Source: Candidatus Cryptobacteroides pullicola (GTDB taxonomy: Bacteria; Bacteroidota; Bacteroidia; Bacteroidales; UBA932). Taken from it: 64,000 nt of DNA. Of the stretch, positions 25,676 through 35,671 are shown piece after piece (position 1 is the stretch's first letter; the number at the start of each line of letters is the position of its first letter). The stretch lies in NCBI GenBank assembly GCA_018711725.1, contig DVHX01000014.1, positions 16,184 to 80,183 on the forward strand, in the 5' to 3' direction. The translations under genes were made by a program, and so were the position numbers. The notes beneath the pieces were generated by a model. That model was given only the letters and a program-made list of their open reading frames with translations. It did not search any database and was not told where the DNA came from.

Positions 25676-25744
25676 TACCTTTGCCGCCGAAAATCTAGTT
25701 TAGTAGGCAGTGTATTTGAATTCTGATAAAATACCCTATCTTTG
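25676..25744 (+). promoter_or_regulatory. Two tandem -7 promoter elements upstream of the TonB-dependent receptor
   Basis: TACCTTTG at 25676-25683 and TATCTTTG at 25737-25744. Confidence 0.55.
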
Positions 25745-25780: not shown

Positions 25781-28700
25781 ATGAAAAAAACCATCAAAAG
25801 TCTATTGCTGTCTTTAGCGGCGATGCTTTTCGTTGTCTCTGCTTCGGCTCAGGTAACGACCTCCGCGTTGAACGGTAGGATCGCCGACGAGAACGGAGAG
25901 ACGATTCCGGGAGCGACCGTAATCGCCACCCACACGCCTTCAGGCACCCAGTACTATGCTGTGGCCAATGCCGAAGGCCGTTTCTTTATCAACGGTATGC
26001 GTTCCGGCGGCCCCTACACCGTAGAGGTCAGCTGCCTCGGTTACCAGACCGTTACCTATACCGACATCACCCTCCAGCTCGCGGAGTCATACAACCTCTC
26101 CGCCGACCTGGCTATAGACAACGAGATGCTGAGCGAGGCTATCGTGGTCTCTACGGCTGCGTCAAGGCTCTCCGTAGAGAAGACCGGTGCCGCCACCAAC
26201 ATCTCCAACGACCAGATTACCGCCCTCCCTACCGTAACGAGGAGCATCGAGGACGTGACCAGGCTCTCTCCCTACGGAGGAAACGGAATGACCTTCGCCG
26301 GAGCTGACGGACGTACCGCCAACTTCACCGTCGACGGTGCCAACTTCAACAACAACTTCGGTCTCAACGACGGCCTTCCCGGAGGCGGCAACCCTATCTC
26401 TCTCGACGCAATCGAGGAGCTCCAGGTCGTGATCTCTCCCTATGACGTCCGCCAGACCAACTTCATCGGAGGCGGTGTGAACGCTATCACCAAGTCAGGT
26501 ACCAACACCTTCAAGGGTAGCGCCTATGTATACCACCGCAACGAGAACCTCCGCGGCGATACTATCGCAGGCGAGCAGATCGACGGTGCGCGTGCGGTAG
26601 ACCGCAACACCACCTACGGCTTCACCCTCGGCGGACCTATCGTGAAGAACAAGCTGTTCTTCTTCGTGAACGCCGAATATGTGAAGATCCCTACCATTGC
26701 CAACAGGTGGAGGGCATCCACCGACGGAGTCGCCGTGCCTAACAGCTATATTTCCCGCACTACCGTGGCCGACCTCCAGAAGGTTTCCGACTTCGTCAAG
26801 GAGAAATACGGCTACGATACCGGTTCATACACCGACTTCCCCGCAGACGAGAGCAACCTCAAGCTGCTCGGCCGTATCGACTGGAACATCAACGACAACC
26901 ACAAGCTCGCGCTGAGGTACAACTACACCCTCAACAGGTACTGGCAGTCGCCCAACGCGACTTCCATGGACGGCGGTACCCGTGCGGTAAACGCCAGAAT
27001 GTCACAGGCCAGCATGAGCTACGCCAATTCGATGTATTCGATGGACAATGTCGTAAGCACCGTTTCGCTCGACCTCAACAGCCGTCTTTCCGACAGGCTC
27101 TCCAACCAGCTGCTCGTGACCTACTCCAAGCTTGACGACGTGCGCGGCAGCACCTCCGACGAGTTCCCGTTCATCGACATCCTCAAGGACGGTGACAACT
27201 ACATATCTCTCGGCTACGAGCTGTTCACCTGGAACAACGCCGTCCACAACACCCACTTCAGCGTAAAGGACGACCTCACCTACTTCAGCGGCGACCACAA
27301 GATTACCGGAGGCATCAACTTCGAGTACCAGATGGCCGACAACATCTATATGAGGAACGGTACAGGTTACTACCGCTATTCAAGTCTCGACGACTTCCTC
27401 AACGGAAGGACTCCGGAGATTGTCAACCTCACCTACGGATATGACGGCGAGACCGCTCCTGCGGCAAGGGTTCAGTTCTACAAGGCCGGTATCTACGCCC
27501 AGGACGAGTGGCAGGCTGCCGACAACTTCATGCTCACCTACGGCCTGCGTCTCGACGGACTGTTCTTCAACAACGCCGACCTTATGACCAACAAGGCTAT
27601 CTACGACCTCGGGTATCCCGACGAGAACGGCAATGTCCGCCATATCGATACCGGCAAGTGGCCTACCTCCAAGATCACCCTGTCTCCCCGCGTGGGCTTC
27701 ACCTGGGACATACTCGGTGACAACTCGCTCACTTTCCGCGGCGGTACCGGACTCTTCTCAGGCCGTCTACCTCTCGTGTTCTTCACCAACATGCCTACCA
27801 ACGGCGGTATGGTGCAGTTCCAGGCACAGCTCAACCAGGACAGCCTGACCGAGTTCCTCGAGAAGCAGGGTCAGACTGTTACCAGCAATCCTATGGATAA
27901 TTTCGCCGGCGGTCTCGTTACCGACGAGAACGGCAAGGCTACCGCACAGGCTCTGCTCGACAAGCTCGCAAGCCTCGGCTATCCTACGACTATCAAGCCC
28001 GAGGACGGTGAACTCCCTTCTTCTATCTCTGCGGTAGATCCCCACTTCAAGATGCCTCAGGTATGGAAGACCTCTGTCGCCCTCGACTACGCGTTCCCCA
28101 CTTCGTTCCCCTTCTCTCTCACCGGTGAGTTCATCTACAACAAGACTATCAACGGTGTGACCATTTCCGACTGGAGCATCATGCCTGTCGGCGGATTCGC
28201 AAGGCTCAACGGCGTGGACAACCGCGCGATCTATCCCGATGTGTTCCGTACCGGCACCAAGGCATTCGTGCTCGAGAACACCAACAAGGGTTACGGATAC
28301 TCTGCGAGCGTATCGCTCAACATGAGCCCCATCGAGGGTCTCGACATCATGGCCGCATATACCCACACCATGAGCAAGGAACTCACCGGTATGCCCGGCT
28401 CCAACGCCGAGTCTGCATTCACCTATGTTCCTACCGTCGAGGGCCCCAACAACATCAGGCTCCACAATTCGCAGTATGTGACTCCCGACCGTGTGGTAGC
28501 GTCCCTCACCCATAGCGACAAGAGCGGCAACCACTACAGCTTCATCTACGAGGCGTTCAGGGGCGGTTACAACTACTCTTACATGACTACCAACGACATG
28601 AACGGCGACGGCTATAACTACGATGCCATTTTCATCCCTACGGACGAGCAGGTTGCCAACAACGAGTTCAGGTTCGCTTCGGAGGACGATGCCGCCCGCT

Positions 28701-29101
28701 TCATGGACTTCGTGCACAACGATCCCTACCTGAGCAAGCATCAGGGCCAGTATGCCGAGGCATACAGCGTATACTCTCCCTGGGTCCACAGGCTCGACTT
28801 CAGCTATAAGCACGACTTCAAGGTGAACATCGGAAACACCACCAACGTGCTCCAGCTCAGCCTCGACATCAAGAACCTGCTCAACCTCTTCAACTCCAAC
28901 TGGGGTGTGATGAAGCAGCTCAATCCCGATGCTATCGGCTCGGATGCGCGCATCCTTAACTATGACGGAGTGGACGCCGACGGTTACGCAGTCTTCTCTA
29001 CCCCTTCCGGCATCAACGCCAACACCCAGACCTTCGTTCCCTACCACGGAATCGGACAGTGCTGGTATGCGTCTATCGGAATCAAATACCTGTTCAACTA
29101 A
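25781..29101 (+). CDS. TonB-dependent receptor with N-terminal carboxypeptidase-regulatory-like domain (Oar-like)
   Basis: Signal peptide, GETIPGATV, NFTVDGANFNNNFGL plug region, GGGVNAITKSGTN, terminal YLFN; 1106 aa. Confidence 0.93.
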   Translation: MKKTIKSLLLSLAAMLFVVSASAQVTTSALNGRIADENGETIPGATVIATHTPSGTQYYAVANAEGRFFINGMRSGGPYTVEVSCLGYQTVTYTDITLQLAESYNLSADLAIDNEMLSEAIVVSTAASRLSVEKTGAATNISNDQITALPTVTRSIEDVTRLSPYGGNGMTFAGADGRTANFTVDGANFNNNFGLNDGLPGGGNPISLDAIEELQVVISPYDVRQTNFIGGGVNAITKSGTNTFKGSAYVYHRNENLRGDTIAGEQIDGARAVDRNTTYGFTLGGPIVKNKLFFFVNAEYVKIPTIANRWRASTDGVAVPNSYISRTTVADLQKVSDFVKEKYGYDTGSYTDFPADESNLKLLGRIDWNINDNHKLALRYNYTLNRYWQSPNATSMDGGTRAVNARMSQASMSYANSMYSMDNVVSTVSLDLNSRLSDRLSNQLLVTYSKLDDVRGSTSDEFPFIDILKDGDNYISLGYELFTWNNAVHNTHFSVKDDLTYFSGDHKITGGINFEYQMADNIYMRNGTGYYRYSSLDDFLNGRTPEIVNLTYGYDGETAPAARVQFYKAGIYAQDEWQAADNFMLTYGLRLDGLFFNNADLMTNKAIYDLGYPDENGNVRHIDTGKWPTSKITLSPRVGFTWDILGDNSLTFRGGTGLFSGRLPLVFFTNMPTNGGMVQFQAQLNQDSLTEFLEKQGQTVTSNPMDNFAGGLVTDENGKATAQALLDKLASLGYPTTIKPEDGELPSSISAVDPHFKMPQVWKTSVALDYAFPTSFPFSLTGEFIYNKTINGVTISDWSIMPVGGFARLNGVDNRAIYPDVFRTGTKAFVLENTNKGYGYSASVSLNMSPIEGLDIMAAYTHTMSKELTGMPGSNAESAFTYVPTVEGPNNIRLHNSQYVTPDRVVASLTHSDKSGNHYSFIYEAFRGGYNYSYMTTNDMNGDGYNYDAIFIPTDEQVANNEFRFASEDDAARFMDFVHNDPYLSKHQGQYAEAYSVYSPWVHRLDFSYKHDFKVNIGNTTNVLQLSLDIKNLLNLFNSNWGVMKQLNPDAIGSDARILNYDGVDADGYAVFSTPSGINANTQTFVPYHGIGQCWYASIGIKYLFN

Positions 29102-29115
29102 TTTGACTGATTCTT

Positions 29116-30693
29116 ATGAAACTCAAAGTATTATTCGCTTCCTTAATTGCAGGCGCACTTCTTCTCAGCTCATGCGAGCAGAAATTCACGCCTACATATC
29201 TTGACGATATCAAGGTCAGCCAGTCCTATGTCGCTATCGACATGACGGGAGGCTCCGTAGATATTACTCTTACTGCGGAAGACGCATGGAATGTGTCATT
29301 CATCGGAACAGGTTACGGTACCAACAAGCAGGCTACTGTCGACTGGGTTACGGTAAGCCCCATGTCGGGTAGCGCCGCCGAAGATCAGGTGCTGACCTTC
29401 GAGGCCGCCGAGACCCTGAACGGAAGGAACTGCGTCGTGCTTATCGAATGCGGCAGCGGTGACAGCAAGGTAACCCAGTACATTAATGTCATCCAGGGCC
29501 TTCCCGTCACCGAGGAGGTCAGCTGCGAGGAAGTCATCGAGAACGGAATCGACGGCAAGACCTACCGTGTCACCGGTATCTGTACCTCGATCTCCAACAC
29601 CGAGTACGGCAACTGGTATCTGAACGACGGCACCGGAGAGCTTTATATCTACGGTACCAAGAATGAGAACGGACAGTATCCTAAGGATGCGGAAGGCGGC
29701 TGGGAGGCATTCGGCATCGAGGTAGGCGACGAGGTTACCGTCGAGGGACCGAAGCTTACCTACGGCAGCACCATCGAGCTCGAGGACGCCACGCTGATCA
29801 GTGTCAACAAGTCGCTGATTGCAGTGGAGTCAGTCGATCCCGAGGATGCTTCGTTCCCTCTTGAGGGCGGCAACGTCAGCGTGACCCTCAACTGCAAGGG
29901 CGACGGCATCGGAGTCGAGATTCCCGCAGAGGCCCAGGAGTGGCTCTCGATAGCTTCTATCGGCGGAACGGCTTCCGCCCCCGTTGTGACCTTCCAGGCC
30001 GCATACAACAATCTCGGCGACCGCAACGTGACCGTTACCTTCACGACCAAGGACGATGAGGGCAAGGAGTACACCACCGAGCAGTCGTTCTTCCAGAAGG
30101 GCTCTATCATCGACGCGACCGCTGCCGAGATCAACGCTGCTGCCGACGGCGATACCCAGTACCGTCTGACCGGCTACATCAGGGAGGTCGCCAACGACCT
30201 TTACGGCAACCTCTATGTAACCGACTTCTCGGGTGAGGTATATGTCTACGGCGTCCTCGACGAGAACGGCGAGAGCAAGCAGTGGGCCAACATGGGCATC
30301 GACGAAGGCGACATCATCACCGTCGTAGGTCCCAAGGGTTCGTACAAGGGAGATCCCCAGATGGTTGATGTCAGCGTCGAGGACCACAAGGCCGTTACCG
30401 AGGCTACCCTTGCGGAGTTCATCGCCGCCGAGAAGGCCGATGACGTGTGGTATCGCCTGACCGGAACCGTCAACGACATCTACAATACCACCTACGGCAA
30501 CTTCCACCTGCTTGACGGCGAGGGTAACGATGTGACCGTATACGGCCTCGTTGCAGGCTGGGGCGGCCCCGATAAGGAGTTCGCATCCCTCGGCATCGAG
30601 GAAGGTGATGTCGTTACTATCGTGGGCGTACGTGACGAGTACAACGGCACCGTACAGGTAGGCGACGCGTTCTTCGTATCGAAGGCCGAATAA
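29116..30693 (+). CDS. Surface lipoprotein with BACON-like domains and three OB-fold-like repeats
   Basis: Lipobox LLSSC; three repeats of YRxTGxxxxxxNxxYGN...VYG...GIxxGDxxTxxG; BACON-like WVTVSPMSG and WLSIASIGG. Confidence 0.7.
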   Translation: MKLKVLFASLIAGALLLSSCEQKFTPTYLDDIKVSQSYVAIDMTGGSVDITLTAEDAWNVSFIGTGYGTNKQATVDWVTVSPMSGSAAEDQVLTFEAAETLNGRNCVVLIECGSGDSKVTQYINVIQGLPVTEEVSCEEVIENGIDGKTYRVTGICTSISNTEYGNWYLNDGTGELYIYGTKNENGQYPKDAEGGWEAFGIEVGDEVTVEGPKLTYGSTIELEDATLISVNKSLIAVESVDPEDASFPLEGGNVSVTLNCKGDGIGVEIPAEAQEWLSIASIGGTASAPVVTFQAAYNNLGDRNVTVTFTTKDDEGKEYTTEQSFFQKGSIIDATAAEINAAADGDTQYRLTGYIREVANDLYGNLYVTDFSGEVYVYGVLDENGESKQWANMGIDEGDIITVVGPKGSYKGDPQMVDVSVEDHKAVTEATLAEFIAAEKADDVWYRLTGTVNDIYNTTYGNFHLLDGEGNDVTVYGLVAGWGGPDKEFASLGIEEGDVVTIVGVRDEYNGTVQVGDAFFVSKAE

Positions 30694-30717
30694 ACCCGGC
30701 TTCAGGATATATTCCAG

Positions 30718-30748
30718 GGAGGAAGGTTCATGCCTTCCTCCTTTTTTT
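30718..30748 (+). terminator. Intrinsic terminator after the TBDR-lipoprotein pair
   Basis: GGAGGAAGG-TTCATG-CCTTCCTCC followed by T7. Confidence 0.85.
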
Positions 30749-30832
30749 GCTGACAGGCGTCAGAAAAAGGGATGTCCGGTATATCCCTTTCCCCGAACGG
30801 GCTGAAGCGGATGAAGTGATTGATTATTTGAT

Positions 30833-30840
30833 TATATTTG
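30833..30840 (+). promoter_or_regulatory. -7 promoter element TATATTTG for the nuclease genes
   Basis: Exact TAnnTTTG match upstream of the start at 30864. Confidence 0.55.
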
Positions 30841-30863
30841 CCTGATAAAAGCAAATCGGTATC

Positions 30864-32537
30864 GTGATGAAACATAAAGTCATATTCTGGGCTGCGGCAT
30901 CGGTACTCGCCGTCCTCGCAGCATGCAACAAGCCTTCCGGGCTCGAACCTCAGATAAGCATCAGCGCCAAGGATCCGGTCGAAGCGCCTGCTACGGAGTA
31001 CAGCTACAGCTTCAAGCTGACGGCTACCGTCGACTGGGAAATCCGCGGACTCGACGAGGACGAGAAGTCATGGCTCGAGGTCAGTCCCGTTTCCGGCGCC
31101 GGCTCGTCCTATCCCCAGACTGTCACAGTCGATATAAAGGCCAATACCTCGGCAGCCGAACGCAGCGCCACATTCGAGTTCTACGGCTCCGGTCTGAGCG
31201 CGCCCCTGACTATAGTCCAGGCCGGTACCGCCGAGACCGAGATATATTCCGTGTCTTTCCTCGACGGACAGGGCGGTTTCACGGTCGAGGACAAGGACAA
31301 GCCTGCCGCGATAGACGAAATCTGGAAGCACGACCCTAAGTACGGCATGGTGGCCACGGCATACAAGTCCGACACGCAGGAGAACCTTGCATCCGAGAGC
31401 TGGCTCGTGTCGCCCGTGATCGACCTCACCGCCGAAAGCGCGGCATATCTCAGCTTCAAGCATGCCGTGAACTTCTTCAAGGACGCTTCCGTGCTCCCCG
31501 ACGAGGCTGCGGTCTGGGTAAGGGAGGAGAACGGCACATGGGAGCGTCTCGAGGGAGTCTACTATCCCCCGACCATGAGCTGGACTTTCATGGATTCCGG
31601 GTCGCTCGACCTCGGCGCCTATGTCGGCAGGAAGATGCAGTTCGCCTTCGTATACAGCAGCACCGCCGAGAAGGCGGGTACCTGGGAAATCCAGGAAGTG
31701 TCCGTCACGAGGAATGATACCGGCCTTCCCGAGGAACTGACTCCCGACACTCCCGGCCTGTGGCTCGAGCTGCCCGCGCTTGACGATGCCGGCTCCGGCC
31801 TCTGCTTCATAAGCCACGACATGCCCCTTGGAGGAAAGGACGTTCGCAACTACTCATACTGCTACAGCACCGGCGACAGGCTCGCCCTCTGGGTGGCATA
31901 CCCCCTCAACGACGGCCTCAGGGGCAACGGCGGCAGGAGCGACGAATGGAGCCTCGACCCCAAGATGCCCCGCAAGTACCAGCCCATACTCTACCGGTCA
32001 TACACCGACAGGGATGAGAACGACGAGAACATATACAACCGCGGACATCAGATTCCCTCTGCCGACAGGCTCGACGCGGAGGCCAACCTGAAGACTTTCT
32101 ACTTTACCAACAGCGCTCCCCAGAGCGGCAGCTTCAACAGCGGCGTATGGGCGGACCTCGAGAACATGGTGCGCGACTGGTCTTCCGACATGGATACGCT
32201 CTATGTCGTGACCGGTGTCGACATCGCGGGCGCCACCGAAGTCGCCCATGACAACGAGGGCAACGAGGTCACGGTTCCGACAGGCTTCTACAAGGCCCTG
32301 CTCGGATATGACAAGGACGCCTCGTTCGGCGCGGAGACTGGCGGATACATAGGAATCGCCTTCTACTTCGAGCACAGGGATTATTCCGGCGGCAGCTCTG
32401 CCGTCATGGAGCAGTCCATGAGCATCGACGCTCTCGAGGACATGCTCGGCTACGACTTCTTCGTGAACCTTCCCGCAAAGATAGGGGAGGACGGGGCGGC
32501 CGCGGTAGAGTCTGCGGTGGATTCATGGTGGAACTGA
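30864..32537 (+). CDS. Lipoprotein: BACON domain, beta-sandwich domain and DNA/RNA non-specific endonuclease (NucA/EndoG type)
   Basis: Lipobox LAAC; WLEVSPVSG BACON; ESWLVSPVIDL; YNRGHQIPSADR and FYFTNSAPQ...FNSGVWADLE beta-beta-alpha-metal motifs. Confidence 0.88.
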   Translation: MMKHKVIFWAAASVLAVLAACNKPSGLEPQISISAKDPVEAPATEYSYSFKLTATVDWEIRGLDEDEKSWLEVSPVSGAGSSYPQTVTVDIKANTSAAERSATFEFYGSGLSAPLTIVQAGTAETEIYSVSFLDGQGGFTVEDKDKPAAIDEIWKHDPKYGMVATAYKSDTQENLASESWLVSPVIDLTAESAAYLSFKHAVNFFKDASVLPDEAAVWVREENGTWERLEGVYYPPTMSWTFMDSGSLDLGAYVGRKMQFAFVYSSTAEKAGTWEIQEVSVTRNDTGLPEELTPDTPGLWLELPALDDAGSGLCFISHDMPLGGKDVRNYSYCYSTGDRLALWVAYPLNDGLRGNGGRSDEWSLDPKMPRKYQPILYRSYTDRDENDENIYNRGHQIPSADRLDAEANLKTFYFTNSAPQSGSFNSGVWADLENMVRDWSSDMDTLYVVTGVDIAGATEVAHDNEGNEVTVPTGFYKALLGYDKDASFGAETGGYIGIAFYFEHRDYSGGSSAVMEQSMSIDALEDMLGYDFFVNLPAKIGEDGAAAVESAVDSWWN

Positions 32538-32565
32538 CGCCTGGGCGGCAAATCTGTCTGACGAT

Positions 32566-33630
32566 ATGAGAAAGTCGGTTTTTACGGCCCTGCTTGCTGT
32601 CGTGCTGCTGTGCAGCTGCGGCAGGACGCAGAAATATGTGGTGGGGTTCTACAACCTCGAGAACCTGTTCGACACGGTGGACGACCCTGCGGTGAACGAC
32701 GAGGAGTTCCTCCCCGAGGGCAGGAACCACTGGACGCAGGACAAGTACGAAGTCAAGCTCCGCAACATCGCCAGCGTCATCGAGGCGATGAAGGAGGAGA
32801 ACGGTGTGTTCCATACCGTTCTCGGCGTGAGCGAGGTGGAGAACGCGGGCGTGCTCGAAGACCTTGTGGCCGAGCCGGGAATCGCCCCTGCCGGATATGA
32901 GATAGTCCATTACGACAGCCCCGACCGTCGCGGAATCGATGTCGCGCTGCTCTACAGGCCCGACCAGTTCGAACTGCTCGACAGCGAGGCCATTCCGTTC
33001 TCGTTCGATGACACGGAAGTGGACATCACCCTCTCGCCCGAGGAACAGGCCGACTTCCGCACCCGCGACATCCTTATGGCGCGCGGACTCCTCGGGGGCG
33101 AGCAGTTCGCATTCTATGTGGCGCACCTGCCCTCGCGCGTAGGCGGGAAGGGCGGCGACCTGCGCTCCCTCGGCGCGGAGATAATCTACAACCATTCCCA
33201 GGCCCTCATGCAGGAGTTCCCGGGCATCAAGATTGTAGTTATGGGCGACATGAACGACAACCCCACCGACGTAAGCATGACGGAGTGGATGCATGCAGAG
33301 GAAGACATAGACGAAGTGGATTCCAGGGCCGGATACTTCAGCCCGTTCACGCAGCTGCTCGAGGACGGTTACGGTTCGCTGGAATACAGGGGAGAGTGGA
33401 ACATCTACGACATCATCCTCGTGAACTACGACCTCGCGGCGGCACCGGACGGTGGCCTGCACATCCTCGAGACTGGGGACGAAGGCCATTACGGCTGCGT
33501 GTTCAGCAGGCCGTTCATGGTGCAGCAGAGCGGACGCTTCGCAGGCACCCCGTTCCGTTCGTTCTCGTACGGGGAGTTCATCGGAGGGTACTCCGACCAC
33601 TATCCGACATATATAGTAATCGGCAGATAG
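32566..33630 (+). CDS. Endonuclease/exonuclease/phosphatase (DNase I-like) family lipoprotein
   Basis: Lipobox LCSC; FYNLENLFD, GVSEVEN, VMGDMND, YSDHYP. Confidence 0.9.
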   Translation: MRKSVFTALLAVVLLCSCGRTQKYVVGFYNLENLFDTVDDPAVNDEEFLPEGRNHWTQDKYEVKLRNIASVIEAMKEENGVFHTVLGVSEVENAGVLEDLVAEPGIAPAGYEIVHYDSPDRRGIDVALLYRPDQFELLDSEAIPFSFDDTEVDITLSPEEQADFRTRDILMARGLLGGEQFAFYVAHLPSRVGGKGGDLRSLGAEIIYNHSQALMQEFPGIKIVVMGDMNDNPTDVSMTEWMHAEEDIDEVDSRAGYFSPFTQLLEDGYGSLEYRGEWNIYDIILVNYDLAAAPDGGLHILETGDEGHYGCVFSRPFMVQQSGRFAGTPFRSFSYGEFIGGYSDHYPTYIVIGR

Positions 33631-33658: not shown

Positions 33659-35671
33659 ATGAAGAAGTTATTTTCATTATTGGCAATCGCAACCGTTATG
33701 ACAGCCTGCGGCGAAAAGAATCCCTTCCTCGCCGAGTGGGACACCCCTTACGGCATCCCTCCCTACGACGAGATTGAAATCGAAGACTATATACCGGCGA
33801 TCAAGGCCGGAATCGAACAGCAGAACGCCCAGATCGAGGAAATCACCTCCAATCCCGACGCTCCTACCTTCGAGAACACCATAGTGCCCCTCGAACTCTC
33901 GGGCGAGATACTCGACAAGGTGCTCGGCGTGCTCTACAATGTCAGCGAGACCGACCGCAGCGATTCCCTCGATGCGGTGATGACGGAGGCAATCCCCATG
34001 CTCAGCGAGCATTCCGACAATATCTCGTTCAACAGGGATCTTTACGAAAGGATAGCCGCGGTCTACAACGGCGACCAGAGCGGCCTCACGCGCGAGCAGC
34101 AGGTCGTGCTGAAAAAACGTTTCGAGAGCTTCGAGCGCGAGGGCATAGGCCTTGACGAGCAGAAGCAGGCCGAGCTCCGCACAATCAACGGCCGTATTGC
34201 GGAACTCACCCAGAAGATAGGCAACAACATCCTCGCCGAGTCCAACGCCTTCGCCGAGAAGTTCGGCTTCAGCGTTTCGGAGTATCCCGCGAAGATGACG
34301 ACGACCGAAGACCGCGAACTCCGCCGCCAGTATAACGAGGCCTACCAGATGCGCGGCCACAACGGCAACGAATACGACAACTCCGACCTGATACTCGAAC
34401 TCGTGGACCAGCGCCTGCGCAAGGCGAACATACTCGGCTATGAGACTTCCGCGGCCTACACGCTTTCAGACAAGATGGCGGCGGATCCCGAGACCGTGGA
34501 CTCCTTCCTCGAGGGCATAATGCAGGCCGCCGTGGCCAAGGCCAGGCTCGAACTTGCCGACATGCAGGCCATTATGGACGAGGATATAAAAGAGGGGAAG
34601 CTTCCCGAGGGCTCGAAGATAGAGCAGTGGGACTGGTGGTACTATGCCGAGAAGGTGCGCAAGGCGAAGTACGACCTCGACGAGTCGCAGACCAGGCCCT
34701 ACTTCAGGATAGACAATGTGGTGGACGGTGTGTTCCGTGCGGCCGAGACCCTCTACGGCGTGAATGCCGAGAAGCTGGAGGGCGTCCCCGCCTACAATCC
34801 CGAGGTCACCACCTATAAGATAACCGCCGACGACGGCTCCCTGATAGGCATATTCACGACCGACTACTTCCCCCGCGACAGCAAGAGGGGAGGCGCCTGG
34901 ATGAACAATGTGCGCAACCAGTATGTGGATGCAGAGGGCAACGACGTGCGCCCTATCATAGTCAATGTCGCGAACCTTCCCGAATATCTCGGCATCGACG
35001 AGGTGCTCACCGTGTTCCACGAGTTCGGACACGCCCTGCACGGGCTGCTGTCGAAGTGCACCTATCCTTCGGTGAGCGGCACTTCCGTGACCCGCGACTT
35101 CGTCGAGATGTTCTCGCAGTTCAACGAGAACTGGGCGTTCCAGCCCGAGCTTCTCGCGCTCTATGCCAAGAACGAGGCCGGCGAGGTGATTCCCGACGAG
35201 CTCGTGAAGAAGATAAACGCTTCGCTGAAGTTCAACCAGGGCTTCATGACGACCGAGCTCTGCGCCGCATCCATGCTCGACATGGCATGGCATGAGCTCG
35301 AGAGCGTGGAAGGCGTCGATGTAGACGAGTTCGAGGCTGCCGTGGCCGAGAGGATAGGCCTGATACCCGAGATAACCTTCCGCTACCGCAGCACCTACTT
35401 CAACCATATCTTCGGCGGCAGCGGCTACAACTCCGGCTATTACGGCTACCTCTGGGCGGAGGTACTCGACAAGGACGCGTTCAGCGTGTTCCAGAACTCT
35501 CCTAACGGAATCTGGGACCTCGCCCTTGCCGACAAGTTCAAGAAGACCTTCCTCGAGAAGGGCGGCTCCGAGGAGCCTATGGTGCTCTACAAGGAGTTCG
35601 TAGGACGCGAGCCCGACTCCAGGGCTATGCTGCTCGGCCGCGGACTCATAGAGGAGGACGATGCGGAATAA
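33659..35671 (+). CDS. M3 family metallopeptidase (Dcp-like) lipoprotein
   Basis: Lipobox MTAC; FHEFGHALH, DFVEMFSQFNE, GYYGYLWAEVLD. Confidence 0.92.
   Translation: MKKLFSLLAIATVMTACGEKNPFLAEWDTPYGIPPYDEIEIEDYIPAIKAGIEQQNAQIEEITSNPDAPTFENTIVPLELSGEILDKVLGVLYNVSETDRSDSLDAVMTEAIPMLSEHSDNISFNRDLYERIAAVYNGDQSGLTREQQVVLKKRFESFEREGIGLDEQKQAELRTINGRIAELTQKIGNNILAESNAFAEKFGFSVSEYPAKMTTTEDRELRRQYNEAYQMRGHNGNEYDNSDLILELVDQRLRKANILGYETSAAYTLSDKMAADPETVDSFLEGIMQAAVAKARLELADMQAIMDEDIKEGKLPEGSKIEQWDWWYYAEKVRKAKYDLDESQTRPYFRIDNVVDGVFRAAETLYGVNAEKLEGVPAYNPEVTTYKITADDGSLIGIFTTDYFPRDSKRGGAWMNNVRNQYVDAEGNDVRPIIVNVANLPEYLGIDEVLTVFHEFGHALHGLLSKCTYPSVSGTSVTRDFVEMFSQFNENWAFQPELLALYAKNEAGEVIPDELVKKINASLKFNQGFMTTELCAASMLDMAWHELESVEGVDVDEFEAAVAERIGLIPEITFRYRSTYFNHIFGGSGYNSGYYGYLWAEVLDKDAFSVFQNSPNGIWDLALADKFKKTFLEKGGSEEPMVLYKEFVGREPDSRAMLLGRGLIEEDDAE

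Follow-up and report, generated by a model that had tools for sequence, protein, structure and literature searches.

It was not until 2025 that loci for DNA utilization were defined, and the definition covered DdbC-related transporters alone. The described locus, ddbABCDEF of Bacteroides thetaiotaomicron, encodes three nucleases, the TonB-dependent transporter (TBDT) DdbC and the DUF5689 protein DdbD, which has a HIN-like fold (Sharan et al., PNAS 2025, PMC12478041). The same study proposed a PUL-like model in explicit comparison with polysaccharide utilization loci (PULs), reported depletion of exogenous DNA by loci built on this logic in B. thetaiotaomicron, described ddb as evolutionarily related to Riemerella transformation genes, and used BLAST to DdbC to define four subtypes, Bt1, Bt2, Pv1 and Pv2, with membership requiring a BLASTp match at E ≤ 1e-15, with identity >50% and coverage >75%, to any of four DdbC sequences used as queries (WP_008762511.1, WP_055220680.1, WP_005843284.1 and WP_117829583.1) (PMC12478041). 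In Riemerella anatipestifer, RA0C_RS04915/04920 are a TBDT and DUF5689 pair acting in natural transformation (PMC8459023, cited in PMC12478041). An earlier study had connected the genes BT3560-3563 with biofilm formation (PMC8851478). Here we analyse a window of 64 kb from Candidatus Cryptobacteroides pullicola, in which four co-directional open reading frames, P0001-P0004 (25781-33630, (+) strand), encode an Oar-like TBDT, an OB-fold lipoprotein and two lipoprotein nucleases.

By sequence comparison the window locus is ddb-like in its logic and its nucleases but carries a different transporter pair, without detectable homology to DdbC or DdbD. We name this pair of Oar-like TBDT and OB lipoprotein type C. 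Literature searches returned nothing on an Oar-like TBDT paired with an OB lipoprotein, and the type C importer pair appears undescribed before. The locus probably binds, cuts and imports extracellular nucleic acid for salvage, as a PUL- or ddb-like nucleic-acid utilization system. An earlier note on this DNA had proposed the same four gene identities, with which the coordinates, Pfam domains and catalytic motifs found here agree, and had pointed to a DNA-degradation locus in B. thetaiotaomicron, which is ddbABCDEF.

The transporter pair and the adjoining nucleases

The TBDT P0001 (1106 aa; 25781..29101, + strand) has a signal peptidase I (SPI) signal, a CarboxypepD_reg N-terminal domain, a candidate TonB box EAIVVS and a barrel matching PF25183 OMP_b-brl_4 (E 5e-49). 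BLAST of P0001 against DdbC-like TBDTs gave nothing significant (best E 0.002 over 163 aa), the DdbC stand-ins being TBDTs that adjoin DUF5689 in four genomes, an indirect proxy for the published DdbC queries. The organization recalls SusC/SusD PULs in its TBDT with an N-terminal carboxypeptidase-regulatory-like domain, its lipoprotein gene immediately downstream and its candidate surface and periplasmic hydrolases. Unlike those loci, P0001 has zero NCBIfam family matches and therefore no SusC/RagA signature, its partner P0002 has no SusD Pfam match, and the enzymes are nucleases with no glycoside hydrolases among them. The earlier description of an Oar-like, SusD-less TBDT is borne out.

The lipoprotein P0002 (525 aa; 29116..30693, + strand; lipobox Cys20) occupies the SusD position, starting 14 bp past the TBDT stop. 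Pfam matches and models resolve a signal peptidase II (SPII)-BACON-OB-BACON-OB-OB architecture, with BACON1 at ~29203-29496, OB1 at ~29512-29811, BACON2 at ~29812-30099, OB2 at 30103-30390 and OB3 at 30394-30690 (+ strand). An AlphaFold2 model of the whole chain (pLDDT 83.8) contains five beta-rich domains, of which the three beyond both BACONs are beta-barrels. Three OB-fold-like repeats had been noticed before; the AlphaFold2 model retains all three, Foldseek supports OB2 and OB3, and two BACON domains had been overlooked. Foldseek with the whole chain was discarded because it gave only beads-on-a-string Ig-like matches (TM ~0.15), and a two-domain model was therefore needed. The AlphaFold2 model of residues 330-525 (OB2-OB3; 25 orthologues) reaches pLDDT 95.5, and every PDB entry that Foldseek matched to it is a nucleic-acid-binding OB fold: Pot1 with single-stranded DNA (ssDNA), Oxytricha TEBP, Thermus SSB, RPA32/14, the LysRS anticodon-binding domain and an AIM2/IFI16 HIN domain (top matches 7cuh, 1k8g, 2ihf, 8c5y, 2pqa and 3rn2; TM ≤0.56 when normalised by the single-OB target). 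RPA32 also came first in a profile search against the sequences of the PDB (E 1e-3). At the level of the predicted fold, OB2 and OB3 agree with OB-fold nucleic-acid-binding domains, which are closed beta-barrels of five strands as in SSB, RPA, Pot1 or HIN proteins. No match to PF18942 (DUF5689) was found in P0002 or in the whole genome, hhalign of the P0002 OB tandem against the DUF5689 alignment gave a probability of 1%, and the two have in common only weak PF01336 OB matches. Lipoprotein export in Bacteroidetes is signalled by acidic residues after the lipidated cysteine, and at least two D/E lie within six residues after it in 65 of 70 OB-lipoprotein orthologues.

Both nucleases keep intact catalytic motifs. 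P0003 (30867..32537, + strand, starting at ATG 30867, one codon after the listed GTG) combines a BACON domain (~30993-31226), a choice-of-anchor-J module (~31275-31706) and an Endonuclease_NS/NucA domain (~31818-32477; PF01223, E 1.5e-39). Its NRGH, TNSAPQ and DLE motifs align with catalytic positions of Anabaena NucA (1ZM8), supplying the RGH histidine, Mg-binding Asn and downstream Glu predicted for an Endonuclease_NS beta-beta-alpha-metal enzyme, as the earlier reading of a BACON-bearing NucA nuclease with NRGH had it. NucA enzymes are sugar-nonspecific, and P0003 is the sole NucA-family gene in the genome. The second enzyme, P0004 (32566..33630, + strand), is a lipobox-bearing Exo_endo_phos_3 (EEP_3) nuclease (PF19580, E 3e-90), again in agreement with its earlier assignment to DNase I-like EEP lipoproteins. 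A sequence search found no solved homologue of P0004, and its N-x-E (YNLENLF), GDMND (GDMNDNP) and SDH catalytic His (YSDHYP) motifs place it among predicted EEP enzymes. Away from the locus, the genome contains one more EEP_3 gene, a divergent paralogue (contig C44:9706-10491; 27% identity to P0004). Both enzymes had been called surface nucleases: the lipoboxes stand, and neither protein has an acidic export signal. In P0004 the cysteine is followed by zero acidic residues (C-GRTQKY); because of this, and because SPI signals are found on the EEP_3 homologues encoded in DdbC loci, P0004 probably faces the periplasm.

Set against ddb, the window shares the predicted logic of binding, cutting and import, the order of a TBDT followed by a lipoprotein with a DNA-binding-type fold, and the presence, directly downstream of the transporter pair, of two nucleases, one a NucA-type lipoprotein and one of the EEP_3 family. 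P0004 is 63% identical to the SPI-type EEP_3 inside the DdbC/DUF5689 locus of a congener and 34-41% identical to EEP_3 genes adjoining TBDT-DUF5689 pairs in other genomes. By contrast, the window TBDT is PF25183/Oar-like and has no DdbC homology by the proxy BLAST, its partner is BACON-OB-BACON-OB-OB with no DUF5689, the EEP enzyme has a lipobox in place of an SPI signal, the genes fall into two predicted transcription units, and the window has no equivalent of DdbE or DdbF. The evidence bears out the earlier suggestion of a divergent version of ddb: the nucleases are ddb-like, and the transporter module is a different, non-homologous one. Since the published search was anchored on DdbC homology and P0001 shows none, we are fairly confident that type C falls outside the four published ddb subtypes.

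The type C family and its shared chromosomal sites

Pairing of an Oar-like TBDT with an OB lipoprotein is a recurrent arrangement. A metagenome protein search yields >3,500 members of the P0002 family, and species-representative genomes contain at least 547 of its loci. Of the 80 loci kept from these genomes for the adjacency count, 77 have the TBDT gene immediately before that of the OB lipoprotein, the remaining 3 being cut by contig ends, and P0001 is 62-89% identical to the TBDT upstream in every complete OB-lipoprotein locus. Oar-like TBDTs of Phocaeicola relatives at ~52% identity were left out of the family, as they have no OB partner. A co-directional nuclease or phosphodiesterase lies ≤3.5 kb from the pair in at least 31 of the 71 loci used for the neighbour count, drawn from four unrelated families: type I nucleotide phosphodiesterase NPP (PF01663; 20 loci), Endonuclease_NS (8), EEP_3 (4) and Endonuclease_1 (3). 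The linkage across genomes, whose absence the earlier note had named as refuting its proposal, is conserved. Nucleic-acid enzymes are over-represented among the neighbours of the pair, and in the loci read it adjoins no glycoside hydrolase. Nuclease associations are clade-specific on the TBDT tree, where P0001 falls in a well-supported group that comprises 14 gut Bacteroidales with small genomes, 8 of which have NucA.

The neighbourhoods hold further genes. One Endonuclease_1 copy scanned against Pfam is fused to DUF5689 and a type IX secretion system (T9SS) tail (L074:5620-7551), and a second case of DUF5689 fused to a secreted nuclease beside an Oar-like/OB pair has the order BACON, DUF5689, BACON, Endonuclease_NS (L015:3564-5636). 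The gene after the OB lipoprotein is nucleotide-related without being a nuclease in two sets of loci, encoding NadA in Prolixibacteraceae-type loci (L045, L047, L058, L075) and the ribonucleotide reductase large subunit in another clade (L031, L042, L060, L068, L069). Type C has a patchy distribution. When the order is sampled evenly, 2 of 167 genera have it, as against 94 of 167 for DUF5689. Within the family to which the window belongs, 31 of 101 genomes carry it, and of the Phocaeicola genomes sampled, 1 of 41 does.

Type C and DdbC-type transporters meet at the same chromosomal sites. In the congener G007, of the same genus, the same metK...M3-iPGM site holds both transporter pairs around one nuclease pair (G007:C5:52000-82900), in the order Oar-like TBDT, BACON-OB-OB lipoprotein, BACON-NucA, EEP_3, DdbC-like TBDT, DUF5689 and M3 peptidase; its Oar-like TBDT is 33% identical to P0001. 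As both pairs are present, this site was ruled out as a cassette swap. In a Phocaeicola relative, an Oar-like TBDT lies ~0.5 kb from a DdbC-related TBDT of the alternative type (G242:C15:68517-74530), and this contig is possibly another dual-transporter locus.

Replacement is seen in B. uniformis. An exact-protein look-up of a flanking helicase yielded 24 contigs to read, in which the space between an ABC-F gene and a DEAD helicase gene is filled, depending on the strain, by one of two cassettes, with flanks ~99% identical; cassette replacement at a fixed chromosomal site is a further likeness to ddb. Cassette 1 is type C with NucA (~18-19 of 24 contigs; L109), and cassette 2 consists of a 915-aa TBDT, an 830-aa choice-of-anchor-J lipoprotein and NucA (5 of 24; L110). 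The cassette-2 TBDT aligns with DdbC-like TBDTs at 27% identity (E 1e-83). Its alignments to the type C TBDTs from B. uniformis and P. sartorii extend over no more than 125-249 residues (E ~1e-5), and P0001 is not matched at all at E 1e-3. The cassette-2 NucA is homologous (38% identity), the partner lipoprotein has no OB domains, and in Phocaeicola relatives homologues of the TBDT are followed in every case by a choice-of-anchor-J protein. Given ~25% identity to Bt-type DdbC, a length match and the Phocaeicola homologues, cassette 2 is probably the published 'Pv type'; it measures 6640 bp, and Pv1 would measure 6651 bp on the assumption that a digit is missing from its printed coordinates. 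We had considered type C itself as Pv1 or Pv2 (the P. sartorii or human-gut three-gene locus) and dropped this because cassette 2 fits better, which is no disproof; WP_005843284.1 and WP_117829583.1 are absent among the cluster members listed.

The window resembles cassette 2 in three respects: type C occupies the same site in B. uniformis, the NucA enzymes are homologous, and P0003 contains a choice-of-anchor-J module. Modules of this kind occur in three places, namely P0003 (31275-31706), the C terminus of a DUF5689 (DdbD-like) protein (35% over 132 aa; L087:9954-11237) and the 830-aa lipoprotein in cassette 2 (32% over 183 aa; L110:4975-7467), and may represent a docking or binding module shared by these systems.

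Transcription units and flanking genes

The earlier note had treated the four genes as one group. They are co-directional and adjoining, and they are predicted to form two transcription units, P0001 with P0002 and P0003 with P0004, in place of one operon, because a terminator and a promoter motif separate P0002 from P0003. TAnnTTTG is the consensus of the Bacteroides -7 promoter motif. Candidate matches on the + strand, read from the sequence, lie upstream of the TBDT gene (25676..25744), as TACCTTTG at 25676-25683 and TATCTTTG at 25737-25744, and 27 nt before the nuclease ATG, as TATATTTG at 30833-30840. The intrinsic terminator after the lipoprotein gene (30716-30743, + strand; 30716..30751 in the feature list) has a 12-bp stem with 6 G-C pairs and a T-run; it is unusually strong and fits the transporter pair as a self-contained, exchangeable cassette. 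A sigma-70 promoter scan is uninformative for Bacteroidetes, and an Rfam scan found no riboswitch.

Housekeeping genes flank the locus, with trmB-like, metK, smpB and miaA upstream and an M3 peptidase lipoprotein, iPGM and RNase R downstream. The gene for the M3 (Dcp-like) peptidase lipoprotein (33659..35671, + strand) keeps its place after the nuclease pair within the clade, recurring at 8 related loci and at that of the congener, and may or may not be part of the system.

Proposed function and its alternatives

A pathway of binding, cutting, import and salvage would account for the gene content of the locus. The triple-OB/BACON lipoprotein P0002, anchored at the cell surface in a putative complex with the adjoining Oar-like TBDT, would capture extracellular nucleic acid. 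The sugar-nonspecific NucA-type lipoprotein nuclease P0003 would cut it to oligonucleotides, P0001 would import the fragments in a TonB-dependent manner, and the periplasm-tethered EEP_3 nuclease P0004 would trim them. The genome encodes two 5'-nucleotidases, which together with its permeases would complete the salvage of nucleosides, phosphate and bases, the presumed purpose of the system. In favour of this reading are the intact domains and catalytic motifs, the predicted OB fold, the constant adjacency of TBDT and lipoprotein, the recurring nuclease linkage, the sites shared or exchanged with DdbC-type cassettes, the acidic export signal of most OB-lipoprotein orthologues and the DNA depletion reported for loci of like logic. 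In a narrower and more speculative proposal, which we think rather doubtful, the pair is a fifth, independently evolved class of Bacteroidales nucleic-acid importer, widespread in Prevotellaceae, Muribaculaceae and gut lineages with small genomes and specialised for single-stranded nucleic acid, RNA or oligonucleotides and not for duplex DNA, because the OB domains resemble those of SSB, RPA and Pot1 and the commonest neighbour is a type I nucleotide phosphodiesterase.

Several observations weigh against nucleic-acid import for salvage. The nucleases are in a separate predicted transcription unit, the locus contains no regulator gene, and its next conserved neighbour is a peptidase gene. About half of the type C loci have no adjacent nuclease, and the ~52% identical Oar-like TBDTs of Phocaeicola relatives occur with no OB lipoprotein at their side. 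OB and BACON folds can bind other polymers. The export signal is weak in P0002 itself, with one acidic residue after the cysteine (C-EQKFTP), and absent in P0003, with zero (C-NKPSGL). DNA is a poor sole C, N or P source for B. thetaiotaomicron (PMC12478041), and 'nutrient' may therefore be too simple a description.

The same genes could instead serve outer-membrane DNA uptake for natural transformation, with the pair handing DNA to ComEC as in a Riemerella-like system and not feeding catabolism. The genome does encode a ComEC-family protein, ddb is evolutionarily related to a transformation system, and the P0002 OB domains are most like ssDNA binders; in both the Riemerella pair and type C, an outer-membrane TBDT and the binding protein encoded beside it are candidates for moving DNA, and an EEP-type nuclease gene is close by. 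We nevertheless consider a transformation role unlikely, as the Riemerella pair is of the DdbC/DUF5689 type and the window transporter pair has no homology to it, and as type C is accompanied here by two nonspecific nucleases and in other lineages by a nucleotide phosphodiesterase.

Import of some other substrate, such as peptides or glycans, with the nuclease adjacency incidental, draws on the first proposal of BACON as a carbohydrate-binding domain, on the adjoining M3 peptidase, on the half of loci that have no nucleases and on the related Oar-like TBDTs that have other partners. Against it stand the OB2-OB3 structural matches, exclusively to nucleic-acid OB folds, the enrichment of nucleic-acid enzymes with no glycoside hydrolases around the pair in the loci read, and the B. 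uniformis site, where the type C cassette swaps with a DdbC-related cassette and a homologous NucA is kept; given these linkage data, a non-nucleic-acid substrate is the less likely reading and strikes us as improbable. No better are the odds that the nucleases act only outside the cell, in remodelling of biofilm-matrix DNA or degradation of host DNA traps, with the TBDT/OB pair functionally unrelated: the nucleases do have their own promoter motif after a terminator, but the linkage of the pair to four nuclease/phosphodiesterase families is non-random, the EEP enzyme has no export signal and the pair co-localises with DdbCD in the congener, and the linkage data make this the less likely role.

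The type C pair is abundant and occurs in dominant gut and rumen lineages, including Prevotella, Muribaculaceae and B. uniformis. If type C does import nucleic acid, it would constitute a second, non-homologous route for gut nucleic-acid turnover and nucleobase production, and the strain-level cassette dimorphism in B. uniformis would be explained. Strains of B. uniformis carrying one or the other cassette are tractable organisms in which this could be tested.

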